From Acaryochloris marina S15 (GTDB lineage Bacteria; Cyanobacteriota; Cyanobacteriia; Thermosynechococcales; Thermosynechococcaceae): a stretch of DNA of 32,000 bases. Position numbers and translations under genes: made by a program. How positions within the stretch are numbered: position 1 is the stretch's first letter; the number at the start of each line of letters is the position of its first letter. The notes under the pieces are model-generated. The model saw only the letters and a program-made list of their open reading frames with translations. It was not told the origin of the DNA and did no database searches. Of this stretch, positions 11,839 through 31,043 are shown one piece after another. The stretch lies in the NCBI RefSeq assembly GCF_018336915.1, contig NZ_CP064925.1:30001-62000 (forward strand), in the 5' to 3' direction.

Positions 11839-12231
11839 ACTTGGACATATGCCTAAAAAGGATTATAGGACTTGGGGTGCTGAGTAGATTGCGAGCTGCG
11901 GTATTTGCTAGCTAGACAATCTGCCCTTCATCCATGGAGTCTGTCCTTCAGTAAAGCCTTTATAAAGGTTGCTGTTAGAATTTTCATCATTAGCCCAGTG
12001 CCATTGATGTATTTTTTATAACGGATCAGATGGTCAAAAGAATTGAATTCATACAAAATTAACTTGTAAAACAGTCCAAAATGAAGAGCAGCAACAGTTA
12101 AGTTTATGATGCAGTCCATAGTTAAAGTCTGATCTGGCAAGCTGTTCTTTTCAAGTTGAGAGATTAATGATGTAGTATCTCAACTCAATCTACTAAGCAT
12201 TTACACGTTTTTGAAACCTATACCTAAAGTA

Positions 12232-12513: not shown

Positions 12514-12876
12514 AGTTAATTTTCCTAAGATAAAAGGTGATGCTGTCAAGCACTGTTAAATATAGTCTCGAGGAATCTGATGAAGTTCTTAACAATCGTC
12601 ACCTACCTATCCAGCTGAGATTTTGAACCATAGCAAATTTCATCTTCCTAAATTTAGGGCTCAAATATGAGGAAATTGTGAGAATTAAAAGTAATTTCAT
12701 CTATTTTTAGAAAACTGGCATTAGAAGAATAGAATTGTATCTATCCCACAATTTTCTTTAGCTTAGTCAATATTTCTCCTAAAAATGAGAGGAATTTACG
12801 TAGAGTGTACAATTACTTATTAGAAGATAAAAATATTTACTGAAAGCTTTGGGAAAGGCTAGGCCATCCCTAGATG

Positions 12877-12902
12877 CTATGTCTGAGTTCTCAGACATAG
12901 CA
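12877..12902. promoter_or_regulatory. Perfect 26-bp palindrome upstream of the hybrid kinase gene (candidate operator or hairpin)
   Basis: The sequence gctatgtctgag-tt-ctcagacatagc has 12-nt arms and lies 96 nt upstream of ATG 12998. It is followed by a tandem near-repeat of cctttt(t)aagat in ..aggccttttaagattaagacctgcctttttaagatg.. (about 12943-12976). Confidence 0.4.
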
Positions 12903-12997
12903 AGAAAATCACATTACTAGCCATTCAAGCTAAGGTTCCTAGGCCTTTTAAGATTAAGACCTGCCTTTTTAAGATGTCCTCTTAGCTTTTCATAGTT

Positions 12998-18090: not shown

Positions 18091-18531
18091 TTAAGAAAGT
18101 AAACCCAACAACTCCCCCGCAGCCTTCACCTTTGCCTGCTTCTTTGACGGCCCCTCACCAATTCCTTCTATGCCCATAGCCCGCACTGCACAGCGAAAAC
18201 CTTCCGGTATCACCTCAAACTCATATCTGGGCATAGAGATTTGCTGACGCTGGCATAACTCCTGCAATGCCCCAATCGGATTCTCCACCACATCACCAGG
18301 CAAGCTCATGGGTTCTTCTGGGTCTTCCTCCAGGTCCTCAGCTTCTTCCTGGCCTGGGTGCAAGACCCTCACCTGTTGCTCAGCTCTGAGAATAGCTCGG
18401 TTTCTGGCGCAATCTAGAAATTTGATCAATGCATCTTCAGGATCATCATTGGGGTAAAGGTAGGCGAGGAATCCAAGGTGTTCGGGGGTTAGGTGGATGG
18501 TCAGACTGGAGATTGGCTGATGGAAGGGCAT
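18091..18531 (-). CDS. Stand-alone double-stranded-RNA-binding-domain (dsRBD) protein with an unknown acidic N-terminal region
   Basis: The C-terminal 70 aa fit the alpha-beta-beta-beta-alpha dsRBM pattern: NPIGALQELCQRQQISMPRYEFEVIPEGFRCAVRAMGIEGIGEGPSKKQAKVKAAGELLGLL. This includes the SKKxAKxxAA helix. No RNase III catalytic signature is present. The start lies 2 nt after the P450 stop. Confidence 0.7.
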   Translation of the reverse strand: MPFHQPISSLTIHLTPEHLGFLAYLYPNDDPEDALIKFLDCARNRAILRAEQQVRVLHPGQEEAEDLEEDPEEPMSLPGDVVENPIGALQELCQRQQISMPRYEFEVIPEGFRCAVRAMGIEGIGEGPSKKQAKVKAAGELLGLLS

Positions 18532-18533
18532 GG

Positions 18534-19889
18534 TTAGAGGTTGGAAGACTCCAAAATCATCTTAATTCCATGTTTTGGACGCAAAGTTATTGACGGTAAC
18601 AGCTCAATAGACTGGTCCGGGACAAGTTTGAAGTAATGTTGTTTTGAAATCATCGCTAGTATTAGCGTCGCCTCCATCATGGAAAAGGCTTTGCCAATGC
18701 AACTCCTTGGTCCTGCTCCAAAAGGGAAATAAGCACAGCGTGGCAGATTTAGTTCTAATTCACCCATCCATCGCTCAGGTGAAAACTTCTCAGGATTGTC
18801 AAAGAAGCGGGCATCTCGATGGACAATCCATTGACTGAAATAAACAGACGTTCCTTTCTCCAGCAAATAAGGGCCAATCATGCAGTCTTGGGCAACTTCG
18901 CGAGTCAGCGCCCAAGCTGATGGATACAGACGCATTGACTCTTTAAGAACCATCTCTGTGTAAGGCAAGAGGGGAAGGTCTGTGATGTCTGGTTCTCTTC
19001 CCTTCAGGACGGATTGCGTCTCTAAGGTTAGCTTAGTTGCAACTACCGGATTTTGAGCCAACAGCATTAGCGTCCAGGTTAGGGAATTGGCTGTAGTCTC
19101 ATGCCCTGCTAGTAATAGCGTCATAACTTCATCGCGCAGCTCATCCATCGAGAGCTGATTACCATCTTCATCTTGGGTGGAGAGAAGACTTGACAACAAA
19201 TCATCTTGCGGAGAATGACGACGCTCTTCAATGATGGACACTACGATCTTATTGAGGTATTTAATAGCCTGATTTGCTCTAAGATTACTCGGCGTAGGTA
19301 TCCAAGTAGGAACTAAAAAGCTAGTCTGTCCCCTGTGATAGCTTTGAAGCATAATTGCTTCTAAGGCATCCCCAATCTCTAAAGCTACTTGGGTAACATC
19401 AACGCCAAAGAGAACTTTGGTAATCACCTTAACGGTAAGCTGACTCATCTCCTGGTGGATATCACGGACCTCTCCGTTCTTCCAGGTATTGAGCATCTCA
19501 ACAGTGCTTTCTATAGCCGTAGCAGCATAGGCCGATATCTTGTCCTGAGTGAAGGCAGGCTGCATAAGACGCCGATGTCGTTGCCAGAGTTCTCCATCAC
19601 TCAGCAGTAGACCATTACCAAGGAATCCTTTCAAAGAACGATAGCTAATGTCCTTAATAAAATGCTGATTTTTTTTGCTGAGGACTTCGGAAATCAGGTC
19701 AGGATGATGAAAAATATAGATATGGGTTGAACCAATACTTATCCTCTCTACATCTCCATATTCCTTAGCGGACTTGATCGAAAATTCGATCGGTTTTCGA
19801 GAGAACTGTATCAGTTGCCAGACAGCAGAGAGGCCGTTAATTCCTGGTACTTCATTGGGATAAGTAGGCGTAGGAGTACTAGTTGTCAT
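18534..19889 (-). CDS. Cytochrome P450
   Basis: 451 aa. The I-helix is LLAGHETTA, the ExxR motif is ESMRLYP, and the heme-Cys loop is FPFGAGPRSCIGKAF. Confidence 0.93.
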   Translation of the reverse strand: MTTSTPTPTYPNEVPGINGLSAVWQLIQFSRKPIEFSIKSAKEYGDVERISIGSTHIYIFHHPDLISEVLSKKNQHFIKDISYRSLKGFLGNGLLLSDGELWQRHRRLMQPAFTQDKISAYAATAIESTVEMLNTWKNGEVRDIHQEMSQLTVKVITKVLFGVDVTQVALEIGDALEAIMLQSYHRGQTSFLVPTWIPTPSNLRANQAIKYLNKIVVSIIEERRHSPQDDLLSSLLSTQDEDGNQLSMDELRDEVMTLLLAGHETTANSLTWTLMLLAQNPVVATKLTLETQSVLKGREPDITDLPLLPYTEMVLKESMRLYPSAWALTREVAQDCMIGPYLLEKGTSVYFSQWIVHRDARFFDNPEKFSPERWMGELELNLPRCAYFPFGAGPRSCIGKAFSMMEATLILAMISKQHYFKLVPDQSIELLPSITLRPKHGIKMILESSNL

Positions 19890-19985
19890 AATTTACAGAG
19901 ATCATTGATGAGCTGGAGTCAGGCAGCTAAGACTTAACAATAGGATCACACTCGCCAGATACTAGGTGGCTTAAAATACTGTGAA

Positions 19986-20060
19986 GAATAAAAATTCAAT
20001 TTGGTTTACAAGATAGAAAAACTAAGTATTTTTATAAAGCATAGGATGAATAAAAATTCA
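19986..20060. repeat. 13-bp direct repeat pair in the AT-rich divergent P450/tpsA intergenic region
   Basis: gaataaaaattca occurs at 19986-19998 and 20048-20060, a 62-bp spacing, inside the 351-bp intergenic region 19890-20240. Confidence 0.5.
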
Positions 20061-20240
20061 GGATTGTACAGTTACATTACTTGATAACACTTAGTTTCTA
20101 CAGGTATGCTTGTTGACGCTAGATTTTTTATTATGGAAATCTTTTTTGCTTCACGTAAGCATCTATATTCTTTCAAAGAAATGCTTAATAAACAGATGGC
20201 TATTTTTAAGCATCATTTAGTTAATATATAATGCATTTTC

Positions 20241-22757
20241 ATGAATTCACTTAGATTTTGGAGTCATTCGTTATCATCTTTTTGCTTCATTCTAGTATCA
20301 ACAGTCCAAGCGGATGCTCAGATTATTCCTGACTCTACACTTGGGGCAGAAAGTTCAATTGTTAATTCTATCAATGGCACTCCTAATACTAGGCTAACAG
20401 GTGGAGTAACTAGAGGTTCAAATCTTTTTCATAGCTTTTTAGAATTTAGTATTAACAACGGCCAGGGAGCTTATTTTGATACTTCTAATAATATACAAAC
20501 AATTATAACGAGAGTAACAGGAAATAAAACTTCTCTAATTAATGGAGCTTTAGGTAACTTAGGAAATGCTGATCTCTTCTTTCTTAATCCCAATGGCATC
20601 ATTTTTGGTCGAAATGCCTCTCTAGACCTCAATGGCTCCTTTATTGGTAGTACTGCAAATAACCTTTGGTTTAAGGATAAATCAATCTTCCCTGCTAATC
20701 CTTCGCTTAAATCTCTTGTACTTACTAGTAGCACCCCAAGTAGTCTTGAATTCTCAGAAAACCCTGGCCTTATCCAGATAGTTGGTGAAGGCAACAGACT
20801 CGCAGATTTCACGATTTTCCCACTATTCAATCCTTTTAATGTTCCAGCTGGACTTTCTTTAAAGCCGAATAATACTCTTGCATTGATTGGTGGGAGAATC
20901 TTAAGTCAAGGAGGAGTAATAAGATCCTCAAGTGGTCGAATTGAATTAGGTAGTATTTCCAGCGGTGAAATAGAACTCAATAAGATTAATTCAGGTTGGG
21001 CATTTGATTACTCAAATGTAAACTTATTCCAAAATATTGAACTCACTGAAAGATCACTTATTGATACTTCCGGTATTGTAGGTGGATCAATTAATTTACA
21101 AGGTCGAAGCATTACTTTAGACGGGGGTTCTACCGTCTTAATACAAAATCTGGGAGATTTACCTTCAGGGAATATCACAGTAAGTGCTTCGGAAAGTCTA
21201 ACAGTAAGTGGAATATCTGATGATCCTCGTTTCATCACTCCTGTAATTGCTGCAATTGCCGGGGATGACTTAAATATTAAAATCCCTAGCACCTTCTTAA
21301 CAGAAACTATTGGTCAAGGAGAATCAGGAGATATTAAAGTTTCCACCTCAAAATTAGTTGTTAATGATGGTGCTCAAATCCTTACAAGAACTTACAGTAC
21401 TGGGGAGACTGGGAAGATAGATATTAAAGCTACTGAAACTATTCAAGTTTTAGATTTTGCACCAACTTTACCAGTGGTCTTTAGCAATATTAGTACTGCT
21501 ACATTTAATTCGGGTGATTCTGGAGATCTAACGCTATCCGCCAAAAATATAGTTGCCTCTAACGGTGGTAGTATCGGTTCTGCTACTTTCAATATTGGGA
21601 ATGGGGGAGATGTAAATATTAATGCAACAGACATTACTTTGACAGGGGTAGTACCATTTTTATTTATTCCTAGTGGAATTACTGGAGCTACATTTAGCTC
21701 CGGCTCCGCAGGTACAATAACAATCAATACGTCTTCTTTGTCATTAATAGATGGTGGTCGTTTAGGAACATCTACAGTTGCATCTGGTGATGCTGGTGAA
21801 GTTACGATTAATGCTGCTCAGTTTGTAAAAGTTAGTGGGACTGTTCCTGGCTCAATAAACCCCAGCATAATAGATTCCTCCGCTAATATTATTGATCCTG
21901 CCTTAAGAGTTGAATTAGGGCTGCCTGGAAGTCCACTGCCAATAATACCTAGTGGAACTGCTGGTGACGTATCCATCAGCACCCAGAATTTACTTGTTGA
22001 TAATGGTGGTCTAATTAGTGTTCGAAATGATGGTCAAGGAGATGCAGGATCACTAACAATTGATAGCAAAAGAATTAGTCTGAATAATGGAGCTATTGTC
22101 GCTAGCACCAACGGCGGTAATGGTGGAAACATTGATCTTTTATCAGAGCTATTGATATCAAACAATGGCTTAATTTCTGGATCGGCTCAAGGTGATGGAA
22201 CGGGTGGCAACTTAACTATCAATTCAGATCTAATCGTTTCATTCAATAACAGTCTATTTTCTGCAAATGCAGAGCAAGCAACAGGTGGAAATATTTTGGT
22301 TAACACTCAAGGAATATTTCTAGGTGAAGATAGCAAGATCACGGCTTCATCCTTATTAGGGGCGCAATTTACTGGCAATATCGAAGTCAATAGTCCCAAC
22401 ATAGATTTCACAAAGGCAACATTGGATCTAGCGATTAGACCTGAAATTGAGCGAGTGACAACTAGCTGTAATATCAGCCCTGGAGAAGCAGCGAGTGAAT
22501 TCACTCGTCCTGGGTCCGGGGGGATTGCATCAAACTCTGATAGTTTTGGGGAAATTAGTGTAGCTACAACCAGTCAAGCTAATCTGCAAGCCCAACAAGA
22601 ATATTATCTTGATCCAGAAACAGGGAAGCCAGAAAAATACCCCAACGTTGTTGGCTGGAAAAACAATCCAGATGGCACAATTGCATTTACTTCTGATCCA
22701 ACAGAAGCAGTCCAAACTAAAGCGTTCTGCTCAAAAGCTGCCTCAAAAGAATCATAG
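20241..22757 (+). CDS. Two-partner-secretion exoprotein (TpsA), with a filamentous-hemagglutinin-type N-terminal TPS domain plus beta-helix
   Basis: The signal peptide is MNSLRFWSHSLSSFCFILVSTVQADA. The TPS domain is GGVTRGSNLFHSFLEFSI..ITRVTG..SLINGAL..ADLFFLNPNGIIFG. At least 9 rung-like motifs of the form GxxGD/N-h-x-h-x-A/S/T occur (GDSGDLTLSA, GNGGDVNINA, GSAGTITINT, GDAGEVTINA, GTAGDVSIST, GDAGSLTIDS, GNGGNIDLLS, GTGGNLTINS, ATGGNILVNT). Confidence 0.9.
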   Translation: MNSLRFWSHSLSSFCFILVSTVQADAQIIPDSTLGAESSIVNSINGTPNTRLTGGVTRGSNLFHSFLEFSINNGQGAYFDTSNNIQTIITRVTGNKTSLINGALGNLGNADLFFLNPNGIIFGRNASLDLNGSFIGSTANNLWFKDKSIFPANPSLKSLVLTSSTPSSLEFSENPGLIQIVGEGNRLADFTIFPLFNPFNVPAGLSLKPNNTLALIGGRILSQGGVIRSSSGRIELGSISSGEIELNKINSGWAFDYSNVNLFQNIELTERSLIDTSGIVGGSINLQGRSITLDGGSTVLIQNLGDLPSGNITVSASESLTVSGISDDPRFITPVIAAIAGDDLNIKIPSTFLTETIGQGESGDIKVSTSKLVVNDGAQILTRTYSTGETGKIDIKATETIQVLDFAPTLPVVFSNISTATFNSGDSGDLTLSAKNIVASNGGSIGSATFNIGNGGDVNINATDITLTGVVPFLFIPSGITGATFSSGSAGTITINTSSLSLIDGGRLGTSTVASGDAGEVTINAAQFVKVSGTVPGSINPSIIDSSANIIDPALRVELGLPGSPLPIIPSGTAGDVSISTQNLLVDNGGLISVRNDGQGDAGSLTIDSKRISLNNGAIVASTNGGNGGNIDLLSELLISNNGLISGSAQGDGTGGNLTINSDLIVSFNNSLFSANAEQATGGNILVNTQGIFLGEDSKITASSLLGAQFTGNIEVNSPNIDFTKATLDLAIRPEIERVTTSCNISPGEAASEFTRPGSGGIASNSDSFGEISVATTSQANLQAQQEYYLDPETGKPEKYPNVVGWKNNPDGTIAFTSDPTEAVQTKAFCSKAASKES

Positions 22758-22765
22758 GCAGATAC

Positions 22766-24466
22766 ATGTTTAATAGAAATTTTTTGCTGCTTAGTCTGGT
22801 TGGGCCATGTATCTTTTCGCAACCTGCTTTTTCTCAAGCACAACTTCTAAATCCATCTGATCTAACACCCAGGAAATCTCCTATACCAGATTTTCCAATA
22901 CTACCTGAGTTAGATCCCTTACTGGAAAAACCTTCGTTACCTGAGCAAATTCCACCCGATTTTTTACAGGATTCTGTTGAGGTAGAAAGCTTTTTATTCA
23001 AAGGAGCTACTGTTTATCGTGACGAGGATTTACAGAAAATTTCTGCACCATATCTGGAAGGACCACAAAGTATTGTTGAGCTACAAGAACTCACTCAGGA
23101 AATTGTTGCTTTTTACGAAAATGCTGGATATGTTGCAATCTCAGCAGCTCTGGCACAACAGCAAAACTCCAAGATAGATCCCAGTAAAGCCGTCGTCACA
23201 ATCCTGATCACGGAAGGTACTCTTGAGAACATTGATATCCAGGGAGCTAAGCGCCTGGAGAAGTATGTTCGGCAGCGATTGCCCAAGCTAAATTCAATAA
23301 TTAACGAAGACACGATCCTAGAAGATATCCGAATACTACAAGCAGACCCACTGGTTGAGAAAATTTCAGTTGGTCTGACAAAGGGGTCTTTCTTGAATCG
23401 ATACACCCTAAACGTTGAAGTTACCCCAGCAAAACAAAGGAGTCTAGTTCTTGCCCTCGACAACGATCGCCCTCCTACTGTAGATACGTTTCAACGCAGC
23501 ATCGAATTCACAGATCGCAACCTCGTTGGATGGGGGGACAACCTCAACCTCAAAGTTAGCAATACAGACGGCAGCACCTCTGTTCAGTTTGCCTATTCTC
23601 TGCCAGTAAATCCCCAAAACGGCACCGTGGGTGTGAAATATTTCTACGGTTCGAGCAAGGTGGTAGAAGACCCTTTTGATGGACTGGATATCGAGGCTGA
23701 TGCAGAGCTTTGGGAATTATGGTTTAGGCAACCCATTATCCAAAAAGCAACCACAAATTCAGTAGAAGAACTTGCATTAAGGATCGCATTCACTCGTGAA
23801 TCCAGTGACTTCTCGCTATTGGGCATCCCTTTCCCGGTTTCAAGAGGTGCCGATGCATTAGGCCGAACCCGAACATCAGTTCTTCGCTTTTCTCAGGACT
23901 GGTCTAAGCAGAGCAATGAAACTATTCTCTTCTTGAGGTCACAGTTTAATTTTGGTCTAGATATTCTAGGCGCGACAACAGATGATGACGGTCCTGATGG
24001 TCGCTTTTTCGCGTGGAAGGCACAAGGGCTTGTGGTAAAACGATTGTTTGATGATTGGACAATAGCTTTAAGATCCGAGCTGCAACTTGCTGAAAGTACC
24101 CTCGTCCCTTCAGAGCAAGTCTCTTTGGGGGGATTCTCCTCTGTCCGTGGTTATCGCCAAAATCTATTGTTGGGTGATAATGGTTGGCTTAGTTCAATAG
24201 AACTAGGGATTCCCCTTTACTCAGGAGCCGTTGGTAATTTTAGGCTAGCGCCATTTTTTGAGGTCGGTACAGTTTGGAATAACGAGCCTCAATTTATTCC
24301 TACTGCAAATACCCTTGCTGCAGTAGGAATTGGTTTGCGCTATCAGCAAGGAGACTGCCCAAGTGTCCGTCTTGACTGGGGTATCCCCTTGCTAAACACT
24401 CCAGAACAAAGGCCATCTCTTCAAGAATCAGGCATCTACATATCAGTACAATGCGATATTTTTTAA
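22766..24466 (+). CDS. TpsB outer-membrane transporter (ShlB/FhaC/HecB family, POTRA plus beta-barrel)
   Basis: The signal peptide is MFNRNFLLLSLVGPCIFSQPAFSQA. The POTRA-like segment is VESFLFKGATVYRDEDLQKISAPYLEGPQSIVELQELTQEIVAFYENAGY. The barrel motif is LGGFSSVRGYRQN and the terminal residue is Phe (..SVQCDIF*). The start lies 9 nt after the TpsA stop. Confidence 0.9.
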   Translation: MFNRNFLLLSLVGPCIFSQPAFSQAQLLNPSDLTPRKSPIPDFPILPELDPLLEKPSLPEQIPPDFLQDSVEVESFLFKGATVYRDEDLQKISAPYLEGPQSIVELQELTQEIVAFYENAGYVAISAALAQQQNSKIDPSKAVVTILITEGTLENIDIQGAKRLEKYVRQRLPKLNSIINEDTILEDIRILQADPLVEKISVGLTKGSFLNRYTLNVEVTPAKQRSLVLALDNDRPPTVDTFQRSIEFTDRNLVGWGDNLNLKVSNTDGSTSVQFAYSLPVNPQNGTVGVKYFYGSSKVVEDPFDGLDIEADAELWELWFRQPIIQKATTNSVEELALRIAFTRESSDFSLLGIPFPVSRGADALGRTRTSVLRFSQDWSKQSNETILFLRSQFNFGLDILGATTDDDGPDGRFFAWKAQGLVVKRLFDDWTIALRSELQLAESTLVPSEQVSLGGFSSVRGYRQNLLLGDNGWLSSIELGIPLYSGAVGNFRLAPFFEVGTVWNNEPQFIPTANTLAAVGIGLRYQQGDCPSVRLDWGIPLLNTPEQRPSLQESGIYISVQCDIF

Positions 24467-26925
24467 ACAGCCTTTTACTTTCAGCATTAATAGCCCTAGC
24501 AAGCATCCCTGCCCTGGCTAGCCCTATTGAGAAGGCAGAGCAACTTACCACTCAAGGGCATCAGCATCTACGACAGGGCAATCCTGGCAATGCGATTGAG
24601 ACGTGGCTAAAAGCATTACAGATTTACCAAAAAGAGAATTCAGAAGATGGTGAGAAAAGTACTCTGATTCACTTGAGCTTGGCTTATCGAGCAAAAGGCC
24701 AGTATCCCAATGCCTGCTGGGTGCTGACGGATGCCCTAGAGGTAGACGACAGTGCTATTTGTCGCAACGTCAACCGACCAACCGCTGAAGAGGTTGCTAC
24801 CGCCCTTCAAATCATTAAGGAACAGCCTGATACTTTACTGACTCTCAAAGCTTTGCAAGAGCTAGGCATAGTTTTACGAGTCATTGGAAATCTAGATGAA
24901 TCTGTGTCAGTCCTAGAGATAGCTCTAGCCTCAGCTCAGAGACAAAATCTAACTTTTGAGCATTACGCACTTAGAATGAGCTTGGCAAACGTTCAAGCGG
25001 ATCTTATTCGCCAAGCCCAAAATCGATTTTCTTTATCGGATAATCCACTAACAAAAGCCCAGTTTATTGAGGTTGCAACTTCAACGCTACCCGATGTCTC
25101 AAAAACGTATCTGGAACTAGCAGCAACAGGGCCAAGATTCCTCCGAGCAAGATTGAATTGGCTCAAAATTTTCTTATCCATCAACCAATGGGCTAATCAA
25201 GATCCGACAAATCCTGAACTATCTGCGTTGAGAAGCAGCCTAATTCCTGGCTTGGATTCCACGCTGGATAAAGCCTTAGTAGCGGATTACTCGAAAGAAT
25301 CACCGATCCAAAGTGTATACAGCCGAATCAAATTAGCAAAATACCTTCTGGAAATACAGAAGAGTGATTTACCTGTAACCACCGAGAAGCACATCCTCAT
25401 CCTCGCTTTTGAACTTGCGAATTCAGCTAGGAACGATGCACTGAGTCTAAAAAATGAGCGGGCAGAGTCCTTTGCTGTCGGAGTAACGGGCCTACTATAC
25501 AAGACTACAAAGCAGAACGATTTTGCACAAAGATCTTTCAAGGCTGCGAGGGATTTAGCGGTATCAAGCAACTCTGCTGATTCTGCCTATGAGTGGGAAT
25601 GGGAGCTAGCAAAACTATATCAAGCGCAGGGTCAAACCCAGGATGCAATCTCAGCCTATGAACGATCAATCAAAAACCTTGATCAGGTTAGAGGTGATCT
25701 GCTCCCTATTGACTCTGAGCTGCAATTCAGATTCGCAGACAAAGTTAAGCCCGTTTATCAACAATACATCAGCGTACTATTGGAGTCTGATACGCCAAAT
25801 TTAGAGAAAGCTGTATTAACAAACGAGCGGCTGCAAGTTGCTCAAATCGAGAATTTCCTGCACTGTGGAAAGCTAGTTTTCGTCTCCACAACCCAAATCG
25901 AGAATGCACCAACTACAATCCATGTTCTGGAACTGGAAGACAGTTTTGAGATACTTGTACCCAACAACGGGACTTGGGCAAGGTTCTCAGCCAATGGGGA
26001 GCGGGTCAGAGGTCTTGCTAGTAAAATCTTAATAGAGCTTCAAGATGAACAATTTTCCAGCACTGAAGACGATTCCTTGCTAGCAGAATCCCAAGCACTT
26101 TACCAGCTACTACTAGACCCAATTGAGAAGCAGGGGCTATTGCCAGAACAGGACGACACGATTGTGTTTGTCACTGATGGAATTCTTAGTAATATTCCCC
26201 TATCAATGCTCCATGATGGCAAGAAGTATTTGGTCGAACGATATAGTATTGCTACTAATCTGGGCAGACTGCAAGCTCCTGAAGCGGTTAGTCCCCAGCA
26301 GCTCAAATTACTGATCACAGGGATATCGAAAGCAAGCCCTAGCCTAAATGCTCCTCAAATTCCGTCAGGGCTGGATGTCTTATCGGAAACAGAAGAAGAA
26401 GCCACTCTGGTTAGCAGTAGCAAAATAGAATCATCTACTTTACTCAATAGCAAGTTTACTGCCAACAACTTAAGAAGAAAGTTGAGTGGCGATTACAATG
26501 CGTTGCACATTTCCACTCACGGGCAATTTTCTTCAGATCCAAATCAAACGTTTTTACTGGCATGGGATAAACCCGTCCCATTACAAGAGCTTGATACCAT
26601 CATTAGGCAAGGAACTCAAGTTGCTGCTAATAACTTGGAGCTACTTTTCCTGAGTGCCTGCCAGTCTGCAAAAGGTGACCAGCTATCTAGCCTGGGTATT
26701 GCGGGTGTGTCAATCCAAGCTGGTGCAAAATCAACAGTCGCATCCTTGTGGCTAGTTGATGCTGAATCTACTGCTCAGCTTGTAGGAGACTTTTACAAAT
26801 CATTGGCAAATGGAAAGACGAAAGCAGAGGCCCTGCGAAAAGCTCAATTGGCACTATTGGGTAAACCTGCTACTCGCCACCCTTACTACTGGGCACCATT
26901 TGTCTTGTCGGGAAGCTGGCTTTGA
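24451..26925 (+). CDS. Exported TPR-CHAT domain protein (caspase-like protease fold)
   Basis: The Sec-type signal is MRYFLNSLLLSALIALASIPALA|SP. The N-terminal two thirds are TPR-like helices. In the C-terminal CHAT domain the His is in LHISTHGQF (codon 26518-26520) and the Cys is in LLFLSACQSAKG (26659-26661). The family-typical end is HPYYWAPFVLSGSWL*. The start overlaps the tpsB 3' end by 16 nt. Confidence 0.88.
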   Translation: MRYFLNSLLLSALIALASIPALASPIEKAEQLTTQGHQHLRQGNPGNAIETWLKALQIYQKENSEDGEKSTLIHLSLAYRAKGQYPNACWVLTDALEVDDSAICRNVNRPTAEEVATALQIIKEQPDTLLTLKALQELGIVLRVIGNLDESVSVLEIALASAQRQNLTFEHYALRMSLANVQADLIRQAQNRFSLSDNPLTKAQFIEVATSTLPDVSKTYLELAATGPRFLRARLNWLKIFLSINQWANQDPTNPELSALRSSLIPGLDSTLDKALVADYSKESPIQSVYSRIKLAKYLLEIQKSDLPVTTEKHILILAFELANSARNDALSLKNERAESFAVGVTGLLYKTTKQNDFAQRSFKAARDLAVSSNSADSAYEWEWELAKLYQAQGQTQDAISAYERSIKNLDQVRGDLLPIDSELQFRFADKVKPVYQQYISVLLESDTPNLEKAVLTNERLQVAQIENFLHCGKLVFVSTTQIENAPTTIHVLELEDSFEILVPNNGTWARFSANGERVRGLASKILIELQDEQFSSTEDDSLLAESQALYQLLLDPIEKQGLLPEQDDTIVFVTDGILSNIPLSMLHDGKKYLVERYSIATNLGRLQAPEAVSPQQLKLLITGISKASPSLNAPQIPSGLDVLSETEEEATLVSSSKIESSTLLNSKFTANNLRRKLSGDYNALHISTHGQFSSDPNQTFLLAWDKPVPLQELDTIIRQGTQVAANNLELLFLSACQSAKGDQLSSLGIAGVSIQAGAKSTVASLWLVDAESTAQLVGDFYKSLANGKTKAEALRKAQLALLGKPATRHPYYWAPFVLSGSWL

Positions 26926-27851
26926 TATTGATCCAGAGCTTGCAAGCCAGCTTGAGCTTTCTCTAGGGCAACTTGATTATTCTGAGACTTTGCTAACTGC
27001 ATAGCCTTCAAGTACTTCTCTCTAGCTTCATCCAGCAACCTTACATCAATAAAGCGTTCTGCCAACACCGTAAATATTTCCGGGTGACTACTTCCTGCCT
27101 GTATTCTGGCCTCTAACACTTTAATACTTTCGTCCAGTACACCTTTGGACAGATAGGCGGCATTGAGATCTAAATATGCCTCTCGGTCTGGATCGAGCTT
27201 AAAGCTACGAATTAGTCCAATCATCTGCTGAAGATCTTTCGCGTCTTCGGTCTTCAGCAAGCGGAATATAGAAGAATCCGCAACAATCGGAACCTCATTT
27301 TTATAGGCAATCACGTTGACCTTATAACGATTCCCTGGACTCAAAGGAGCGTGTTCATCAGGATATTCTAAAAACGCTGATGTAGTGGTTTTTGACCACA
27401 AATTTTTCCTGGGAGATCCAAACTCAAACCGATATCTTGTTGCACCGTCAACAGCAGACCAAGAGAACTGTGGTCGGGGTTCCAGTAGCCAACGACCATA
27501 AGGGGTGATTATTCTTGGCTTTACTGCACGGCTACCACCTTTCCTTCGATTACAAAAGCTACGAGAAGGGAGAGGGCATTTTTTAAGGTTGGAATCCCTG
27601 GTCTGTTTTTTAGGCCGACATTGTTGCTCGGATGGATTGAAGTAGCAGAGGACAAAGCTACCTGATATTTGCGAAACAATCTGATCGCCACTACAAAGCA
27701 ATTTACCGACGAGATTCTGCTGACTCGCCTTCAAGATTCGGCCAATCGGTTCACAGGTTTCTTTCTTGGGCTGCGATTGAGCTACAGCCGAAGCAGGCCA
27801 AATAATTTGTGAGGCCAACAGAATCAGGGTTGTTTGCTTCGCAAGATTCAT
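26886..27851 (-). CDS. Exported Cys-rich protein with a C-terminal TPR-like region (possibly DUF928-like)
   Basis: The signal peptide is MNLAKQTTLILLASQIIWPASAVA. There are six Cys in the first 100 mature residues. The segment RRKGGSR..PRPQFSWSAVDGATRYRFEF..LSPGNRYKVNV resembles the GGGTRG / PTFxW / xEFxL / LxxGxxYxW pattern I recall for cyanobacterial DUF928. The C-terminus is helical repeats. The DUF928 link is tentative. Confidence 0.6.
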   Translation of the reverse strand: MNLAKQTTLILLASQIIWPASAVAQSQPKKETCEPIGRILKASQQNLVGKLLCSGDQIVSQISGSFVLCYFNPSEQQCRPKKQTRDSNLKKCPLPSRSFCNRRKGGSRAVKPRIITPYGRWLLEPRPQFSWSAVDGATRYRFEFGSPRKNLWSKTTTSAFLEYPDEHAPLSPGNRYKVNVIAYKNEVPIVADSSIFRLLKTEDAKDLQQMIGLIRSFKLDPDREAYLDLNAAYLSKGVLDESIKVLEARIQAGSSHPEIFTVLAERFIDVRLLDEAREKYLKAMQLAKSQNNQVALEKAQAGLQALDQYQSQLPDKTNGAQ

Positions 27852-27899
27852 ATGTTGGGAAAAACACCTATTTCTTTCTTCGTTAAATAAGATTATAGG

Positions 27900-29639
27900 C
27901 TATGGCTCTGGGAACAAGCGATTGAGTACGAGGCTCTTCCATTCATCTACCTCTGGTAAAGATGAATCGAGTTGTAGACAAGTTTTCCAAGCTTTTTGTG
28001 CCAAGGGCTGTTTACCTTGCTCTTGATAGACTTGGGCAATAAGACAGTGGGCTGCTGCCATCTCGGGATCTAGGCTAGTTGCTTGTTTTAAATGATCTTC
28101 AGCTTGCTCGTGCTGTTCAAGTTTGAATTCTGCCCAGCCCAGATTTTTCAACAGCAGCGCCCTATCTAAGTCTCTTGCTGCAGTCTCCCCTACCACTCTT
28201 GTCACCAATTTCTTTGCTTCAGCATAATTACCCTGCAATATTTTAAGGCGCGATAGATTATTGGCCGATCCGACAGCTTGGGCATCCGTAGCATTCTCAA
28301 TCACCCGTCTGTAATATTTCTCGGCTAACGTAGCGTTTCCTTGATCCTCATATAGGCTAGCCAGATTGAAAGTCGAGATCCAATAACTGGAATTTACTTG
28401 AGCTGCTTTTTTGTAGTTTTCGATAGCACAAGGGAGATCACCCTCGACCTGACAGATAATACCTAGATTGTTGAGGGTTTCTTCGTTGTTGGGATTCAGA
28501 TTTAGAGCTTTTGCATAATTCTCTTTAGCTGCACTCAGTTGATTGTTCGATTGCTCTACATACCCCTTGTAAAAGTAGTGTTCTGCCATAGACTGACTGT
28601 AGAATTCCTTCCCCTCTTTGATACCTACGTATCCCAGTACAGCGATACAGACAGCAAAAACCCCTAAACCCAATTTGAAATATGGAGATCGGCTGGCTTT
28701 CTCCCAAAGCTCCAGCTTTTCAATGTCTTGAAGGAGGTACTTAGTGCTTTGATGGCGATCTCCTGGTTGGATCGCCATCATTTTGTCCAGCAGATTAGCC
28801 AGTTTGCGATCCAATCGAGGTAATTTATCTCGCCAAATAGGTTCTCCTGTTTTCTTGTCGATAGGTAGCTTATAAGGCTGAACCCCTGTCAGTACCTCAA
28901 TAATGGTGCGTCCCAAGGCATAAAAATCTGACTGGGGCAGCGCTTTGCCGTTGACCTGCTCTAGGGGGGAGTACCCCATGCTTTGAATTAAAGTAATGTC
29001 GTCAAAGCGCTCAGTAATACCGTCAGTGTTCTCAGGTGTGGCTAACTTAGCAATGTACGTTTCCGTGATGGGCCTAATAGCACCAAGATCTATTAATGCC
29101 AGCTTTCCATCTGGCCTCACAATTATGTTTGACGGTTTGATATCTCGGTGAAAAAAGCGCTTTTCATGAATTGCATGGAGGATTTGAGCCAGTTGCTTCA
29201 GCCAATCAAAAGCTTGATGAGGAGATACGGGATCATGAGTTTTCAGCCATTCCTTAAGCGTCACCCCCTCTATTTTTTCCATCACAAATCCATAAATCTC
29301 ACATGGATCTTGTAATGGGTTTAATTTTATTTTGAAATACTCGTACCACTCTGCTCTCGGCACACACGGATGCCGAATACTTCTAAGTGCTACATATTCA
29401 CGCTCAAACATTGTGACTAGCTTTGGCTGAACATCCTTGAGGATTTTTATGATCTTGACATCCTCATCCCCTGCCTGCGCCTCAAAAACCTCTGATCTCC
29501 TTAAAGGATGGAGATCGCCCAATGGTTTTAGTAAGCGATAGCGATCTCCTATCAGCAAGGAGGCCCCACAGTTTTGACATTGATCCAATTGGTCTGGATT
29601 TAGTCGTTGATCACATATAGGATTCGGACAATAGCTCAC
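27900..29639 (-). CDS. Membrane-spanning Ser/Thr protein kinase: 4-Cys zinc-ribbon prefix, kinase domain, one TM segment, C-terminal TPR repeats
   Basis: The 4-Cys prefix is CPNPICDQRLNPDQLDQCQNCG. Kinase motifs are VKIIKILK, HRDIKPSNII, DLGAI and SPLEQ. The TM segment is FKLGLGVFAVCIAVLGYVGI. It is followed by about 6 TPR-like repeats (..AKENYAKALNLNPNNEETLNNLG..AIENYKKAAQVNSSY..). Confidence 0.9.
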   Translation of the reverse strand: MSYCPNPICDQRLNPDQLDQCQNCGASLLIGDRYRLLKPLGDLHPLRRSEVFEAQAGDEDVKIIKILKDVQPKLVTMFEREYVALRSIRHPCVPRAEWYEYFKIKLNPLQDPCEIYGFVMEKIEGVTLKEWLKTHDPVSPHQAFDWLKQLAQILHAIHEKRFFHRDIKPSNIIVRPDGKLALIDLGAIRPITETYIAKLATPENTDGITERFDDITLIQSMGYSPLEQVNGKALPQSDFYALGRTIIEVLTGVQPYKLPIDKKTGEPIWRDKLPRLDRKLANLLDKMMAIQPGDRHQSTKYLLQDIEKLELWEKASRSPYFKLGLGVFAVCIAVLGYVGIKEGKEFYSQSMAEHYFYKGYVEQSNNQLSAAKENYAKALNLNPNNEETLNNLGIICQVEGDLPCAIENYKKAAQVNSSYWISTFNLASLYEDQGNATLAEKYYRRVIENATDAQAVGSANNLSRLKILQGNYAEAKKLVTRVVGETAARDLDRALLLKNLGWAEFKLEQHEQAEDHLKQATSLDPEMAAAHCLIAQVYQEQGKQPLAQKAWKTCLQLDSSLPEVDEWKSLVLNRLFPEP

Positions 29640-29654
29640 TGAACAAGAACCCTA

Positions 29655-31043
29655 CTAAACTTTCTGGGAAATTCGCGCCTTCACAGCTCCAGACGGATCT
29701 GTAAGCAGATATTTCCTAATGACGGGAGGCATCCTAAATTCCAAGGCTTTTGCGGTGAATTCTTTCTCAATAACTGAACGCTCAGTGAGAGAATTCAACG
29801 CTTCCAGGATTTGAGACTTTGATGTGCTAAATTGCTGTTCATCAATTATGTGCGTAATCAAGCTATCCAGCGTAATTGAATCATCAATTTCTAACTGTTG
29901 AGCCATAAGAACTAAGATTTGCATCTCTAAAAGGCTAAGTCTCCCGCCTATCCCAAATTGCTGATCAAATCTAGAAGGGAAAGAACTACCTAGCCATATA
30001 GTTTCATATTCAATAAATCGACTTATTTTCCCATCGAAAAAGTCTTTAATTCGGTCTGCTATATTGTGGAGTGCAAGAGGATTTCCACGATACTGGTCAG
30101 TAATTTTTAACCAATCATCTCGCCCTTGCAAAGCATACTCTTCATATATTTCAAGTGATTCACTAGCAGAAAGACCTGTTAAATGAAATGTTGTAACTGG
30201 TTTTTTAGCTTGGCTAAGCTCATCCAAGTCTTTGAAATTTTCTCTACTTGTTAAAACTACAACACTATTATGAGATTCCTCTACAACTCTTCTTAGTAAA
30301 TAGCCGTAGCCAATATATTTTTCACCGTAAGGATTAATATTGTCACCTTTTAGAATAGAGTCAGCTTCGTCTAGGATTAAAAAGCATCTATTTACTTTAA
30401 GGAATCTAATAAATTCATCACTCGAATAATCTTTGTCTCTATCCTTAGAGTCCTGATTAATATCTTGAATAATATTTTGGTATAAATCTTCTAGATGAGG
30501 ACCATGATAAATTGACTTCCAGATATAATAATCAAATTCATAATCATCCGACCGACTAACTAAGTCTATTAGCTTTGCTGCTAAGGAGCTTTTACCTATA
30601 CCCACTTGCCCTGTAATAACGATACAGCGGCTATCTTGTGTTCTCATGAGTAATTTTTTCAGCTCTGATGATCGACCATACAGCTTCTCAGTAGAAGGTA
30701 GGTAATCAATATTTGACTGCGATCTACCAGCGTTCCAAACCCGGTCATCTCCAGGTAGAACACCAACTGTATCAATTAGCTCTTCAACAACATCCTTGAT
30801 ATAAGGCTTGCCAATTCGGTATTCCTCTCCTAATATCTGCTGGAGAAATCGCCATAATCCAGGGCCAGCAGTATTTTGTAGGTAAGCTTTTTCAAATCGC
30901 GAGTCAGCCGCTAACGCTTCGTAAGACAATCCTTTTATTGAGCCATGCAAAATACACCGCTCAACCTCGGTAAGCTTTTTTCCCCGTATTTTTAGGGATT
31001 GACTATCAACCCAAGTGTAGAAATCATCAAGCGTTAAAGCCAT
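29655..31043 (-). CDS. STAND-class NB-ARC ATPase with an N-terminal HTH-like module and no C-terminal repeat sensor
   Basis: The N-terminus is KLTEVERCILHGSIKGLSYEALAA..GPGLWRFLQQILGEE, the helix-turn-helix-like cap seen on many cyanobacterial NB-ARC/WD40 proteins. Walker A is ITGQVGIGKSSLAAKL and Walker B is CFLILDEAD. VVVLTSRE and the NB-ARC GxPLA motif (YRGNPLAL) are present. The C-terminus is winged-helix-like. The protein ends at 462 aa without WD40, TPR or LRR repeats. Confidence 0.8.
   Translation of the reverse strand: MALTLDDFYTWVDSQSLKIRGKKLTEVERCILHGSIKGLSYEALAADSRFEKAYLQNTAGPGLWRFLQQILGEEYRIGKPYIKDVVEELIDTVGVLPGDDRVWNAGRSQSNIDYLPSTEKLYGRSSELKKLLMRTQDSRCIVITGQVGIGKSSLAAKLIDLVSRSDDYEFDYYIWKSIYHGPHLEDLYQNIIQDINQDSKDRDKDYSSDEFIRFLKVNRCFLILDEADSILKGDNINPYGEKYIGYGYLLRRVVEESHNSVVVLTSRENFKDLDELSQAKKPVTTFHLTGLSASESLEIYEEYALQGRDDWLKITDQYRGNPLALHNIADRIKDFFDGKISRFIEYETIWLGSSFPSRFDQQFGIGGRLSLLEMQILVLMAQQLEIDDSITLDSLITHIIDEQQFSTSKSQILEALNSLTERSVIEKEFTAKALEFRMPPVIRKYLLTDPSGAVKARISQKV

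Follow-up and report, generated by a model that had tools for sequence, protein, structure and literature searches.

Do two facing operons of Acaryochloris marina S15, one encoding a two-partner-secretion pair and a protease and the other a kinase and an ATPase, form a single system across the cell envelope, as the initial annotation of this DNA proposed? The window analyzed is a 32,000-nt stretch of an Acaryochloris-type cyanobacterial replicon (NZ_CP064925.1, positions 30,001 to 62,000 of the forward strand), and all coordinates are positions in it. The six intact open reading frames (ORFs), the convergent operons, and the overlap of their last genes lay exactly where they had been described:

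20241–22757, plus strand: tpsA, encoding an 838-aa two-partner-secretion exoprotein
22766–24466, plus strand: tpsB, encoding a 566-aa Omp85-family outer-membrane transporter
24451–26925, plus strand: TPR-CHAT protease gene (824 aa, export-type N-terminus)
26886–26925: 3'-end overlap of the convergent CHAT and 321-aa genes (40 bp, from the ORF coordinates)
26886–27851, minus strand: gene of a 321-aa protein with an export-type N-terminus
27900–29639, minus strand: receptor-type Ser/Thr kinase gene (579 aa)
29655–31043, minus strand: minimal STAND ATPase gene (462 aa)

The ORFs are closely packed, with gaps of 8, 48, and 15 bp, and tpsB and the CHAT gene share 16 bp. The convergent overlap of the CHAT and 321-aa genes was retained, at 14 to 43 bp, in loci L001, L003, L009, L011, L013, L015, L017, L019, L021, and L033, and was absent from L014, L016, L018, L020, L024, and L066.

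Profile searches bore out five of the initial domain calls (TpsA, TpsB, CHAT, kinase, and STAND), and the catalytic motifs are intact in all enzymes of the cluster. TpsA carries a TPS domain at residues 26 to 285 (PF05860, 163 bits; also TIGR01901), with the motifs NLFHSF at residue 61 and NPNGI at residue 116, followed by a beta-helix shaft. TpsB matched PF03865, PF08479 (POTRA_2), and PF01103, giving the POTRA and ShlB-type barrel of an Omp85 protein. The N-termini of both resemble signal peptides on a crude hydropathy read only. The third protein combines TPR repeats with a CHAT domain (PF12770, 181 bits, residues 546 to 822) containing the motifs HISTHG and LSAC. H686, H690, and C737 were invariant across a 7-sequence alignment in which identity fell as low as 32%, in agreement with the intact His/Cys dyad (H690/C737) claimed earlier:

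26518–26520, plus strand: His690 codon
26659–26661, plus strand: Cys737 codon

Its hydrophobic N-terminus ends in ALA/SP and is signal-peptide-like by hydropathy only. The protein is predicted to be an exported caspase-fold protease.

The kinase matched Pkinase, TPR families, and NF045510, and carries HRD at 164, DLG at 184, and an SPLE motif. Its parts are as follows:

27903–28607, minus strand: TPR ectodomain
28611–28688, minus strand: transmembrane (TM) helix (hydrophobic 19-mers, residues ~318–343)
28740–29492, minus strand: kinase domain
29556–29633, minus strand: 4-Cys prefix

Since this TM helix, called by hydropathy only, is the sole one, the TPR domain is placed outside the cytoplasm, as had been suggested. 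The STAND protein matched NB-ARC and NACHT and contains a Walker A (GQVGIGKS), a Walker B (FLILDE), and a GNPLAL motif:

29724–30686, minus strand: NB-ARC NOD, ending at the winged helix
30759–31043, minus strand: N-terminal HTH_VMAP-M9 cap (PF26355, precomputed Pfam)

The winged helix is the last domain of the STAND protein, and a repeat sensor is lacking. Its AF2 model (pLDDT 72) matched the fold of Apaf-1, CED-4, and plant NLRs. The NB-ARC part of the earlier call of a STAND with a DNA-binding-like cap therefore stands; the cap is a precomputed match for the identical protein P0010 that our local Pfam scan did not reproduce, and its HTH or DNA-binding nature was not confirmed by our own searches.

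The sixth protein had been called exported, Cys-rich, and DUF928-like. The first two traits were recovered, the N-terminus being signal-peptide-like by hydropathy only, and the rest of the protein divides into two domains that the AF2 model covers with confidence (residues ~110–315; residues 1–107 are poorly modeled):

26907–27251, minus strand: TPR-like helical domain (Foldseek matches to TPR-type domains)
27252–27524, minus strand: FN3-like beta-sandwich (Foldseek matches to FN3 domains)
27531–27773, minus strand: Cys-rich region

We rejected membership of DUF928: the protein had no Pfam match, and none to DUF928 even at an E value of ≤10, so that what links the two families is a weak, remote similarity (hhalign probability 70.7%, E = 3.8e−5) and an analogous position.

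Are the six genes linked beyond this window? The six families occur together in L009 at 30 to 39% identity, with unrelated flanks, and in metagenome loci at 26 to 43% protein identity, where neither changed flanks nor inversions have parted them. Six metagenome loci carry the CHAT, 321-aa, kinase, and STAND genes and also tpsA (L015, L017, L019, L024, L033, and L066); tpsB is close by in four of them and inverted or displaced in three of these four, and L015 and L019 have the STAND gene in the opposite orientation. Where CHAT-anchored metagenome loci were long enough to judge, kinase and STAND accompanied CHAT in 6/6 loci with the 321-aa gene and 0/39 without it (Fisher test; P = 1.2e−7, a value that overstates independence since the loci are phylogenetically related). 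All 14 members of the core CHAT clade are of the 321-aa type. Every locus of this type that extends far enough has the kinase, and every one that reaches far enough upstream has a tpsA ortholog. The least constant member is tpsB, present in 12 of the 17 mapped 321-aa-type loci (the window counted), inverted in L014, L024, and L033, and displaced in L019. Recurrence in so many divergent loci places the arrangement far beyond chance; it is not a matter of tpsA and tpsB alone co-occurring, the outcome that would have told against the proposed linkage. By sequence comparison, the six genes are one conserved cluster across distantly related cyanobacteria.

From this we infer, at a probability of roughly 45%, that they act as a single conserved, envelope-spanning functional module that couples TpsA/CHAT to the kinase-STAND pair. 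Co-divergence of all six genes and their retention despite rearrangement argue for it. Against it are loci where the two halves part. The DNA of L027 is 75% identical to that of L024 as far as the CHAT stop codon, keeping tpsA-tpsB-CHAT, and then has a VMAP ternary system in the slot of the 321-aa/kinase/STAND arm; L022, a short contig close to L024, keeps tpsB-CHAT and has an nSTAND6-like gene there. The tps-CHAT operon can thus exist without the arm. Conversely, a STAND-kinase pair (L004) and STAND genes (L005 and L007) occur without TPS or CHAT. These slot replacements would suit two independent systems, a TPS/CHAT surface system and a STAND-kinase conflict module, that are neighbors in a variable defense or mobile island, as would the plasmid and mobile contexts (conjugative pREB6; neighboring ParB, DUF3854, and Uma2) and a STAND that diverges or is swapped much faster than the genes beside it. 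Such independence is nevertheless quite improbable given the co-occurrence counts in metagenome loci and core clade, held at low identity through several rearrangements, and given the 321-aa gene, which bridges the operons. Its family has 166 representatives at E < 1e−30 and was CHAT-linked in all retrieved contexts long enough to judge. When located independently of CHAT, it again lay beside STAND, kinase-TPR, and CHAT genes, or in trios of a TPR protein, a 321-aa-like protein, and TPR-CHAT; in L016 it is on the CHAT strand. A gene that sits in the putative kinase-STAND transcript yet is always CHAT-linked ties the two operons together.

The single-module reading gains further from a sister CHAT clade, which has DUF928 and a CHASE2 membrane protein in the equivalent slot. 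DUF928 adjoins CHAT in 33 of 80 loci, in keeping with the earlier remark that TPS, CHAT, and DUF928 genes occur together in cyanobacteria. DUF928 and CHASE2 are both present in 27 loci, and DUF928 never shares a locus with the 321-aa protein. In L051, CHASE2 is fused to a kinase bearing the same 4-Cys prefix. Both clades encode a small exported beta-sandwich protein by CHAT and then a membrane transducer, and their TpsA proteins end in the same C-terminal domain; the window differs in having the FN3-TPR protein in place of DUF928, a TPR instead of a CHASE2 ectodomain, and a kinase and a distinct STAND where the sister clade has a fused cytoplasmic caspase. The loci with DUF928 and a CHASE2-caspase or CHASE2-kinase thus appear to be a sister variant of the same logic. 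Their caspase-CHASE2, DUF1822, and ECF-sigma part is the EACC2-caspase conflict system of Kaur et al. 2021 (PMC8195603). The matched swap, 321-aa protein with TPR and DUF928 with CHASE2, speaks for partners that interact directly in the periplasm. In L001, the kinase is split in its conservation: its ectodomain keeps step with CHAT and the 321-aa protein (52 to 80% identity), and its kinase domain with STAND (35 to 48% and 28%).

In Streptomyces, the Ser/Thr kinase AfsK acts on the STAND-type transcription factor AfsR, which combines a SARP DNA-binding domain with TPRs at its C-terminus. The window likewise pairs a Hanks-type kinase with a DNA-binding-cap and NB-ARC STAND; it differs in the HTH_VMAP-M9 cap, the lack of repeats, and a membrane-bound kinase with an ectodomain, whose phosphorylation of the STAND is putative. 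The two proteins might be an AfsK/AfsR-like couple of sensor and regulator only, controlling tps-CHAT transcription upon an unrelated envelope cue, with the 321-aa protein a protease or secretion accessory and no direct periplasmic coupling. The HTH-type cap and the occurrence of the pair on its own favor this, and dedicated regulators are common for tps operons (PMC5422565). We consider it unlikely, because the small exported protein is swapped in step with the ectodomain type and because trios (L002, L097, and L098) keep a TM-TPR protein, a 321-aa-like protein, and CHAT without kinase, STAND, or tps genes. Nor did a search find a motif common to the promoters of both operons, a result that also counts against a single module. 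The upstream region of tpsA was as follows:

19890–20240: leader/promoter region 5' of tpsA (351 bp, AT-rich)

GC content was 0.345 over 20001–21000. The leader had no match in Rfam, its promoter-like sites were no commoner than chance, and its GAATAAAAATTC element, present twice, is specific to the window.

The cap also relates the STAND to the VMAP system (2020; PMC7159879), since it belongs to the VMAP-M9 module family and the corresponding slot of L027 is filled by a complete VMAP system; the window itself has no MoxR, vWA, or VMAP-C component.

What might the module act on? The end of TpsA is a candidate:

22374–22751, plus strand: conserved TpsA C-terminal domain (residues ~712–837; bracketed by Cys743 and Cys830)

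This domain has no Pfam annotation. An HMM of the segment matched the extreme C-terminus of CHAT-adjacent TpsA ORFs (783 to 2,172 aa) in ~60 loci of both the 321-aa and DUF928 types, and its presence in all CHAT-linked TpsAs, like the partner swap, supports one module. Within the Acaryochloris clade it is the most conserved region of TpsA. This speaks against a contact-dependent inhibition or polymorphic-toxin system that would use TpsA to deliver a toxin carried at its C-terminus: although CdiA/CdiB systems belong among TpsA/TpsB pairs (PMC5422565), there is no variable toxin tip, no small immunity gene 3' of tpsA in the window, and no toxin domain in a Pfam scan of TpsA, making this reading highly implausible. 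In HMW1 and HxuA of Haemophilus influenzae, a C-terminal domain secures the protein within the TpsB pore, acting from the periplasm (PMC5422565). HMW1/HMW1B and HxuA/HxuB share with the window a small Cys-bracketed domain at the extreme TpsA C-terminus; the window's is ~125 residues long and unrelated in sequence, with putative location and disulfide, and those two systems have no dedicated protease or signaling genes. By these precedents and that of CdrA, the domain is a candidate periplasmic anchor, and it is also a candidate protease target.

The closest working analog is CdrA-LapG-LapD, although it is made of unrelated parts. In Pseudomonas aeruginosa, the TpsA adhesin of the system formed by CdrA/CdrB, LapG, and LapD is anchored at the surface and undergoes regulated proteolysis in the periplasm (PMC5422565), a precedent, like other periplasmic C-terminal anchors, for the module. 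In both cases, TpsA is exported by TpsB and has a Cys-containing C-terminal tail able to stay in the periplasm, and each system includes a cysteine protease of the periplasm and a transducer in the inner membrane that connects this protease with a cytoplasmic signal (predicted in the window). The window differs in that the protease is a TPR-CHAT protein of caspase fold rather than LapG, a Ser/Thr kinase bearing a TPR ectodomain takes the place of the c-di-GMP-binding LapD as transducer, an FN3-TPR protein and an NLR-like STAND are added, and the direction of signaling is probably opposite. Its protease gene also lies within the tps operon, whereas the TpsA maturation proteases known so far have their genes at other sites (review, PMC5422565).

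The parallel in architecture admits control of adhesin release from the inside out. The cytoplasmic STAND and kinase would determine which state the kinase's periplasmic TPR domain is in, and this domain, with the 321-aa protein, would sequester or free the CHAT protease; once free, the protease would cut the periplasmic tail of TpsA and the filament would be shed, for example as an aggregation/dispersal switch. TPR and FN3 are protein-binding modules fit for sequestration, and the position of the protease gene agrees with such a role. Still, this chain as a whole is rather unlikely. Receptor-type Ser/Thr kinases and CHASE2 proteins are as a rule outside-in sensors, domain scans gave no domain binding c-di-GMP or another second messenger, a search for a c-di-GMP riboswitch found none, and the constant presence of an NLR-like STAND with an HTH cap would go unexplained.

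We favor the module working from the outside in. TpsA would be threaded through TpsB to the surface, with its Cys-bracketed C-terminal domain tethered in the periplasm as in HMW1, HxuA, and CdrA. The periplasmic CHAT protease would act on this tail, on the 321-aa protein, or on both, and the FN3-TPR protein would couple the proteolytic state to the kinase TPR ectodomain. The kinase would then signal to the HTH-NB-ARC STAND, which, once switched on, may give a transcriptional or conflict-type output.

The idea of a trans-envelope system is thus supported through conserved linkage, its mechanism being a proposal. The cluster is so far unstudied: the literature searched contained no published description of this composition, as first supposed, and no account linking the 321-aa or DUF928 variant to TPS and DUF928. 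Joining a surface filament and an exported protease to a kinase in the membrane and a switch protein of NLR-like type, the cluster probably passes a signal across the envelope of these cyanobacteria.

The cluster comprises six long and intact open reading frames, all of them present in the ORF list at the positions given by the initial annotation:

20241-22757, plus strand: tpsA
22766-24466, plus strand: tpsB
24451-26925, plus strand: gene of the TPR-CHAT protein
26886-27851, minus strand: gene of an exported, Cys-rich 321-aa protein with FN3-like and TPR-like parts
27900-29639, minus strand: gene of the kinase-TPR protein
29655-31043, minus strand: gene of the STAND protein

The arrangement in two tightly packed, convergent operons whose last genes overlap was recovered. 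Spacing is operon-like, with gaps of 8 (tpsA end to tpsB start), 48 and 15 bp and a 16-bp overlap between tpsB and the CHAT gene, while the two terminal genes, encoding the CHAT and 321-aa proteins, share 40 bp at their 3' ends. Promoter and terminator scans remained at chance level, and the 3' overlap held no convincing terminator. The search for an operator common to the tpsA and STAND promoters gave no 10-mers above shuffles, and Rfam had no match across the window or in the tpsA leader. The N-termini of TpsA, TpsB, CHAT and the 321-aa protein are signal-peptide-like as judged by hydropathy and inspection only, and the topology of the cluster proteins was predicted from hydropathy only. Five of the six domain assignments made initially were supported by Pfam and NCBIfam. 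The sixth, the label "DUF928-like" for the 321-aa protein, was not, since this protein has no Pfam match whatever.

TpsA contains a TPS domain (PF05860, 163 bits, residues 26-285; TIGR01901 also matched) with the motifs NLFHSF at 61 and NPNGI at 116, the latter of the NPNG type that serves as a criterion for TPS. TpsB, encoded directly beside it, matches PF08479 (POTRA_2), PF03865 and PF01103 (ShlB/Omp85 barrel). Together the two genes make up a genuine type Vb (TPS) pair, to which further parts are added, and TpsB-dependent export of TpsA is predicted. The C-terminal end of TpsA forms a further domain:

22374-22751, plus strand: TpsA C-terminal domain (residues ~712-837), ~125 residues bracketed by Cys743 and Cys830, unannotated in Pfam

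This domain is the best-conserved part of TpsA within the Acaryochloris clade. It occupies the extreme C-terminus of CHAT-adjoining TpsA ORFs in ~60 related loci (L013-L092), at any protein length (783-2172 aa) and in both locus variants described below, that is, in essentially all TpsAs adjoining this CHAT family, and carries the motifs S.C...G..S.F...G.GG[IL]P and EAQGW..n.dGt..[LF]T ... C. Its sharing among these proteins argues for a putative specific coupling of TpsA to CHAT. A C-terminus conserved across ~60 loci is therefore not a polymorphic-toxin tip, and since tpsB directly follows tpsA and no immunity ORF is present, we rejected membership in the CDI family (CdiA/CdiB/CdiI) and regard a CDI-type toxin system as extremely improbable.

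The CHAT protein consists of TPR repeats and a CHAT domain (PF12770, 181 bits). Its catalytic dyad, initially described as intact, corresponds to H690 (HISTHG) and C737 (LSAC), which together with H686 are invariant in the CHAT alignment (A4) down to 32% identity. By its conserved catalytic His and Cys the protein is a CHAT/caspase-fold peptidase with predicted activity. The kinase presents, in order, a 4-Cys prefix, a Pkinase domain (76 bits), a single transmembrane helix (the one hydrophobic helix, at ~318-343) and TPR repeats. With HRDIKPSN at 164, DLG, a DFG variant, at 184 and SPLE at 224, it is a Hanks-type Ser/Thr kinase by the HRDxKxxN, DFG and APE criteria; its activity is predicted, and the glycine-rich loop appears degenerate on inspection. 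Residues 1-313, including the 4-Cys prefix, match the PADLOC model of the PD-T4-6 kinase (PDLC04044, 303 bits), a lead only, as many such models match generic Ser/Thr kinases. PD-T4-6 is a single-gene defence, whereas the cluster kinase is fused to a transmembrane helix and TPR repeats and is embedded in a six-gene block.

The STAND protein is a member of the NB-ARC/AP-ATPase clade of STAND NTPases (NB-ARC, 48 bits), with a Walker A motif GQVGIGKS, a Walker B motif FLILDE and an invariant GNPLAL (GxP motif). Its predicted structure matches the fold of Apaf-1, CED-4 and plant NLRs, and it stops at the winged helix, having neither a repeat sensor nor an effector domain. The DNA-binding-like cap proposed for it held in part: PF26355 (HTH_VMAP-M9) is precomputed for an identical protein, whereas our own searches left the HTH unconfirmed. 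The cap gave no match in the local Pfam scan, and Foldseek with the full-length protein matched only NOD. A profile of the cap (alignment A8; residues 1-95, window 30759-31043) run against the PDB gave weak matches to LuxR-type response-regulator HTHs (E~0.6). Among PDB sequences, this profile matched best the Cpl-7 lysozyme (5i8l), in its three cell-wall-binding CW_7 repeats (summed E=1e-3). The STAND of one related locus, L066, has a second, classical sigma-70 region-4-like segment preceding the cap.

The 321-aa protein is distinct from DUF928. Neither the window protein nor its orthologue in locus L009 nor the homologue P0009 matched DUF928 (PF06051) at E<=10, while true DUF928 neighbours in related loci score 195 bits against the same model. 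A comparison of the profiles of the 321-aa family (A6) and of true DUF928 proteins from related loci (A5) with hhalign gave a probability of 70.7% (E=3.8e-5) over 125 columns, which take in the motifs of the beta-sandwich and some of the helical tail, and one multi-repeat relative (P0179) lies at the DUF928 threshold (25.9 bits against a cut-off of 26). A remote relationship, and not family membership, is plausible from these comparisons. AF2 modelled residues ~110-315 with confidence and the Cys-rich first 107 residues poorly, and Foldseek identified an FN3-like sandwich and, after it, a helical domain resembling TPRs. The full HMMER search revealed a family of 166 representatives at E<1e-30 and 1,829 at E<1e-10; word-index homologue searches had badly under-counted both this family and the STANDs. 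In this light the scan of reference genomes, in which one peptide pattern from a five-sequence alignment retrieved only pREB6, is a weak negative; the alignment including P0009 offered no usable conserved stretch for it. The FN3-like central module, whose tandem copies bear the Pfam name Ig_Rha78A_N, is also found as 10-31 such copies in giant proteins of 1,000-6,800 aa (P0064-P0068, P0081, P0134, P0153, P0157 and P0168, all from the full HMMER search). A 291-aa ORF between tpsA and CHAT in L010 was considered as an analogue of the 321-aa gene and rejected, having no signal peptide and no similarity.

The linkage of the six genes is kept well beyond close relatives and is not confined to tpsA-tpsB, as the gene-neighbourhood check suggested in the initial annotation revealed. 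Acaryochloris marina MBIC11017 carries the block on its conjugative plasmid pREB6 (100510-111305; ~74% DNA identity), and the Acaryochloris-type contigs L001 and L011 contain it too. In L009 all six genes retain order, orientation and the 3' overlap at 30-39% identity, in unrelated flanks. A metagenome scan with the CHAT alignment produced 80 full-length relatives (30-38% identity), whose surroundings were mapped with six family profiles. The 321-aa gene adjoins the CHAT gene in 12 of these 80 loci, the components of which show 26-43% identity to those of the window throughout. Kinase and STAND genes accompany it in every such locus that is long enough (L015, L017, L019, L024, L033 and L066); another, L013, breaks off inside the kinase. 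The genes stay linked where tpsB is inverted or displaced (L014, L019, L024, L033), where the STAND gene is flipped (L015, L019), where a Uma2 gene is inserted (L024) and where the 321-aa gene has moved to the CHAT strand (L016). When loci with 5.5 kb or more of sequence downstream of CHAT were compared, kinase and STAND were found in 6/6 with the 321-aa gene and in 0/39 without it, a difference whose significance (Fisher p=1.2e-7) is overstated because the loci, sampled by CHAT similarity, are phylogenetically related and not independent. In a CHAT tree, built by neighbour joining only, 14/14 members of the core clade are of the 321-aa type. Look-ups independent of CHAT, anchored on distant members of the 321-aa family, returned three loci (L093-L095) with STAND, kinase-TPR, 321-aa and convergent CHAT genes in that order, and a fourth (L096) with the same order up to the 321-aa gene, where the contig stops. 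More divergent loci (L002, L097, L098) have a same-strand trio of a 2-TM TPR protein, a 321-aa-like protein and TPR-CHAT. HIP1 octamers were strongly enriched in all 10 non-Acaryochloris loci checked, six of 321-aa type among them, which presumably points to cyanobacteria. That the two operons are unrelated systems, simply neighbours in an island, is in our view very unlikely.

Elsewhere in the CHAT clade, other genes follow CHAT. The slot contains DUF928 in 33 loci, in agreement with the earlier remark that TPS, CHAT and DUF928 genes occur together in cyanobacteria. In 31 loci, 27 of which also have DUF928, there is a gene for a membrane protein that combines a CHASE2 ectodomain with a CHAT/caspase domain in the cytoplasm, and DUF1822 appears in 12 loci of the sister CHAT clade. 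Modules of caspase-CHASE2, DUF1822 and ECF sigma factors were described as conflict systems (Kaur et al. 2021, PMC8195603), in passages of that article that mention no link to TPS or DUF928. DUF928 and the 321-aa family were never found in one locus among the mapped CHAT loci. In L051, DUF928 is accompanied by a kinase-CHASE2 protein whose 4-Cys prefix is the same as that of the window kinase; therefore, which small exported protein is present co-varies with the ectodomain type of the transducer. DUF928 pairs with CHASE2 and the 321-aa family with TPR, while the cytoplasmic module varies. This co-variation is the best argument that the small exported protein and the transducer ectodomain may act together in the periplasm.

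Loci L024 and L027 share 75% DNA identity over a stretch that starts upstream of tpsA and runs as far as the CHAT stop codon, exactly where synteny breaks: a complete vWA-MoxR/VMAP ternary system (L027, 9539-17250), made of CHAT-EAD9, EAD9-VMAP-M1-VMAP-C, a MoxR-type AAA and two FGE-sulfatase proteins, replaces the arm of 321-aa, kinase and STAND genes (L024, 11295-15868). In L022 the slot contains an nSTAND6-like gene of 1163 aa. Thus, a tps-CHAT operon need not be accompanied by the kinase arm, and conflict-type modules built on NTPases are drawn to the slot. The STAND also occurs elsewhere, alone with a membrane kinase of different ectodomain (L004), by itself in a polysaccharide cluster (L005, L006) or beside a WD40 protein (L007). 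Within Acaryochloris it is of two very different types, the window protein being 28% identical to that of L001 or L011, despite CHAT identities of 87% and 70%, respectively. The STAND genes compared were:

window 29655-31043, minus strand
L001 2202-3554
L011 10771-12123

L001 shows an apparent recombination break inside the kinase gene (ectodomain 52-80% identical, kinase domain 35-48%), so that the STAND is accompanied by the cytoplasmic half of the kinase, and the 321-aa protein and CHAT by its periplasmic half. Kinase and STAND recall AfsK/AfsR only in their logic, and the reading of both proteins as a mere regulator pair for the tps operon seems quite unlikely to us.

The contexts of these loci are often mobile (conjugative plasmid, ParB genes, DUF3854, Uma2). 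The first 8 kb of the window hold three transposase genes (938-1651, 3437-4678 and 6820-8106; two IS4/DDE_Tnp_1 and one Mutator), consistent with a plastic, plasmid-like region. GC content dips to 0.35-0.37, against ~0.45 elsewhere, at 20001-21000, 30001-31000 and 12001-13000, which are the 5' ends of both block operons and the spacer before a large hybrid kinase gene. The stretch upstream of the cluster encodes a protein with an FHA domain and two large sensor histidine kinases of PAS/GAF type (4932-5840, 8244-10310, 12998-17077); one of these kinases, of 1359 aa, is a CBS-GAF-PAS hybrid that includes a receiver domain. Since phospho-threonine is the ligand of FHA domains, a link between the FHA protein and the cluster Ser/Thr kinase is conceivable. 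A dsRNA-binding-motif protein and a cytochrome P450 are encoded as a pair at 18091-19889; genes of both types also lie left of the block on pREB6, ~3 kb apart, and a P450 gene flanks tpsA in L001. A radical-SAM gene lies directly 5' of tpsA in L001 (13017-14066) and L011 (311-1354), both Acaryochloris-type. It is reduced to a short remnant on pREB6 (L003, 6664-6954) and is missing upstream of 20241 in the window, where a 351-bp AT-rich spacer and the divergent P450 gene are found instead. Within the window, the palindrome-like element GAATAAAAATTC is unique to this region, with two copies 62 bp apart (19986-19997 and 20048-20059). It is not kept in the other 321-aa-type loci checked, the corresponding stretch of L001, L003 and L011 being radical-SAM coding sequence or its remnant.

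The literature searched contained no description of the six-gene set or of a TPS-CHAT-DUF928 combination, in line with the initial statement that no characterised system has this composition. We rejected an Avs identity, as the STAND lacks the N-terminal effector domain and the C-terminal repeat sensor and ends at the winged helix; the Avs4 model scored 15.7 bits against a cut-off of 1500, and PADLOC returned just weak P-loop matches. A vWA-MoxR-VMAP system was also rejected, because no MoxR AAA+, vWA or VMAP-C was detected in the six proteins or the scanned window ORFs; only the VMAP-M9-type cap is common to both. Among known systems, CdrA/CdrB-LapG-LapD is the one whose working the cluster would resemble most. 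In HMW1 and HxuA, a small C-terminal domain with a disulfide bond stays in the periplasm and retains the protein in its TpsB pore, and CdrA's C-terminal tail in the periplasm is cut by the periplasmic protease LapG under c-di-GMP control, while known TpsA maturation proteases are encoded outside tps operons (PMC5422565). The resemblance is functional and architectural only: the six proteins include no LapG-family protease and no LapD-type HAMP-GGDEF-EAL c-di-GMP receptor domains, and with no protease or transducer family in common the cluster is not a member of the Lap-type systems. LapD-like inside-out control of TpsA release is a reading that we consider unlikely.

We rate the cluster as a TPS system with in-operon proteolytic and signalling accessories. 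Our preferred reading, to which we give a probability of roughly 45%, is a six-gene trans-envelope module working from the outside in, with every step inferred. TpsA would be displayed via TpsB and kept tethered by its Cys-bracketed C-terminal domain in the periplasm. The exported TPR-CHAT protease would act on the TpsA tail and/or the 321-aa protein, and the latter, through its FN3-TPR architecture, may relay the protease-dependent state to the TPR ectodomain of the receptor kinase. The kinase would then signal to the minimal HTH-NB-ARC STAND, with a transcriptional or conflict-type output. That the cluster represents a new class of trans-envelope signalling seems somewhat unlikely.

A broader and somewhat unlikely proposal takes both variants as a cyanobacterial family of trans-envelope proteolytic signalling cascades, leading from a TpsA sentinel to an NLR-like or caspase output. 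Perturbation of a surface-tethered TpsA filament would cause the periplasmic caspase-like CHAT to cleave either the TpsA tail or a Cys-rich FN3-type pro-ligand (the 321-aa protein or DUF928), and the product would engage a membrane receptor of the TPR-kinase or the CHASE2-caspase kind. A response in defence, cell fate or transcription could then be launched by an NLR-like STAND or by a cytoplasmic caspase together with an ECF sigma factor. Such a cascade would be a bacterial counterpart, in logic, of protease-cascade receptor pathways like Spaetzle-Toll-Pelle, and the first case of type Vb secretion feeding an NLR-type switch.

Periplasmic CHAT proteases, DUF928 and the FN3-TPR family are common in cyanobacteria and have no assigned role, DUF928 being named in a single paper of the literature searched. 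The cluster offers them a testable context, a TPS filament with an in-operon protease, a receptor kinase and an NLR-like ATPase, and Acaryochloris marina MBIC11017, with the block on pREB6, is a tractable strain for such tests. If the outside-in model is true, the cluster would provide a novel means of controlling adhesins at the cell surface or of sensing events there. It would also join type V secretion to STAND/NLR signalling, so far studied as a purely cytoplasmic sensor class, and would account for a great number of cyanobacterial gene neighbourhoods now labelled "hypothetical".
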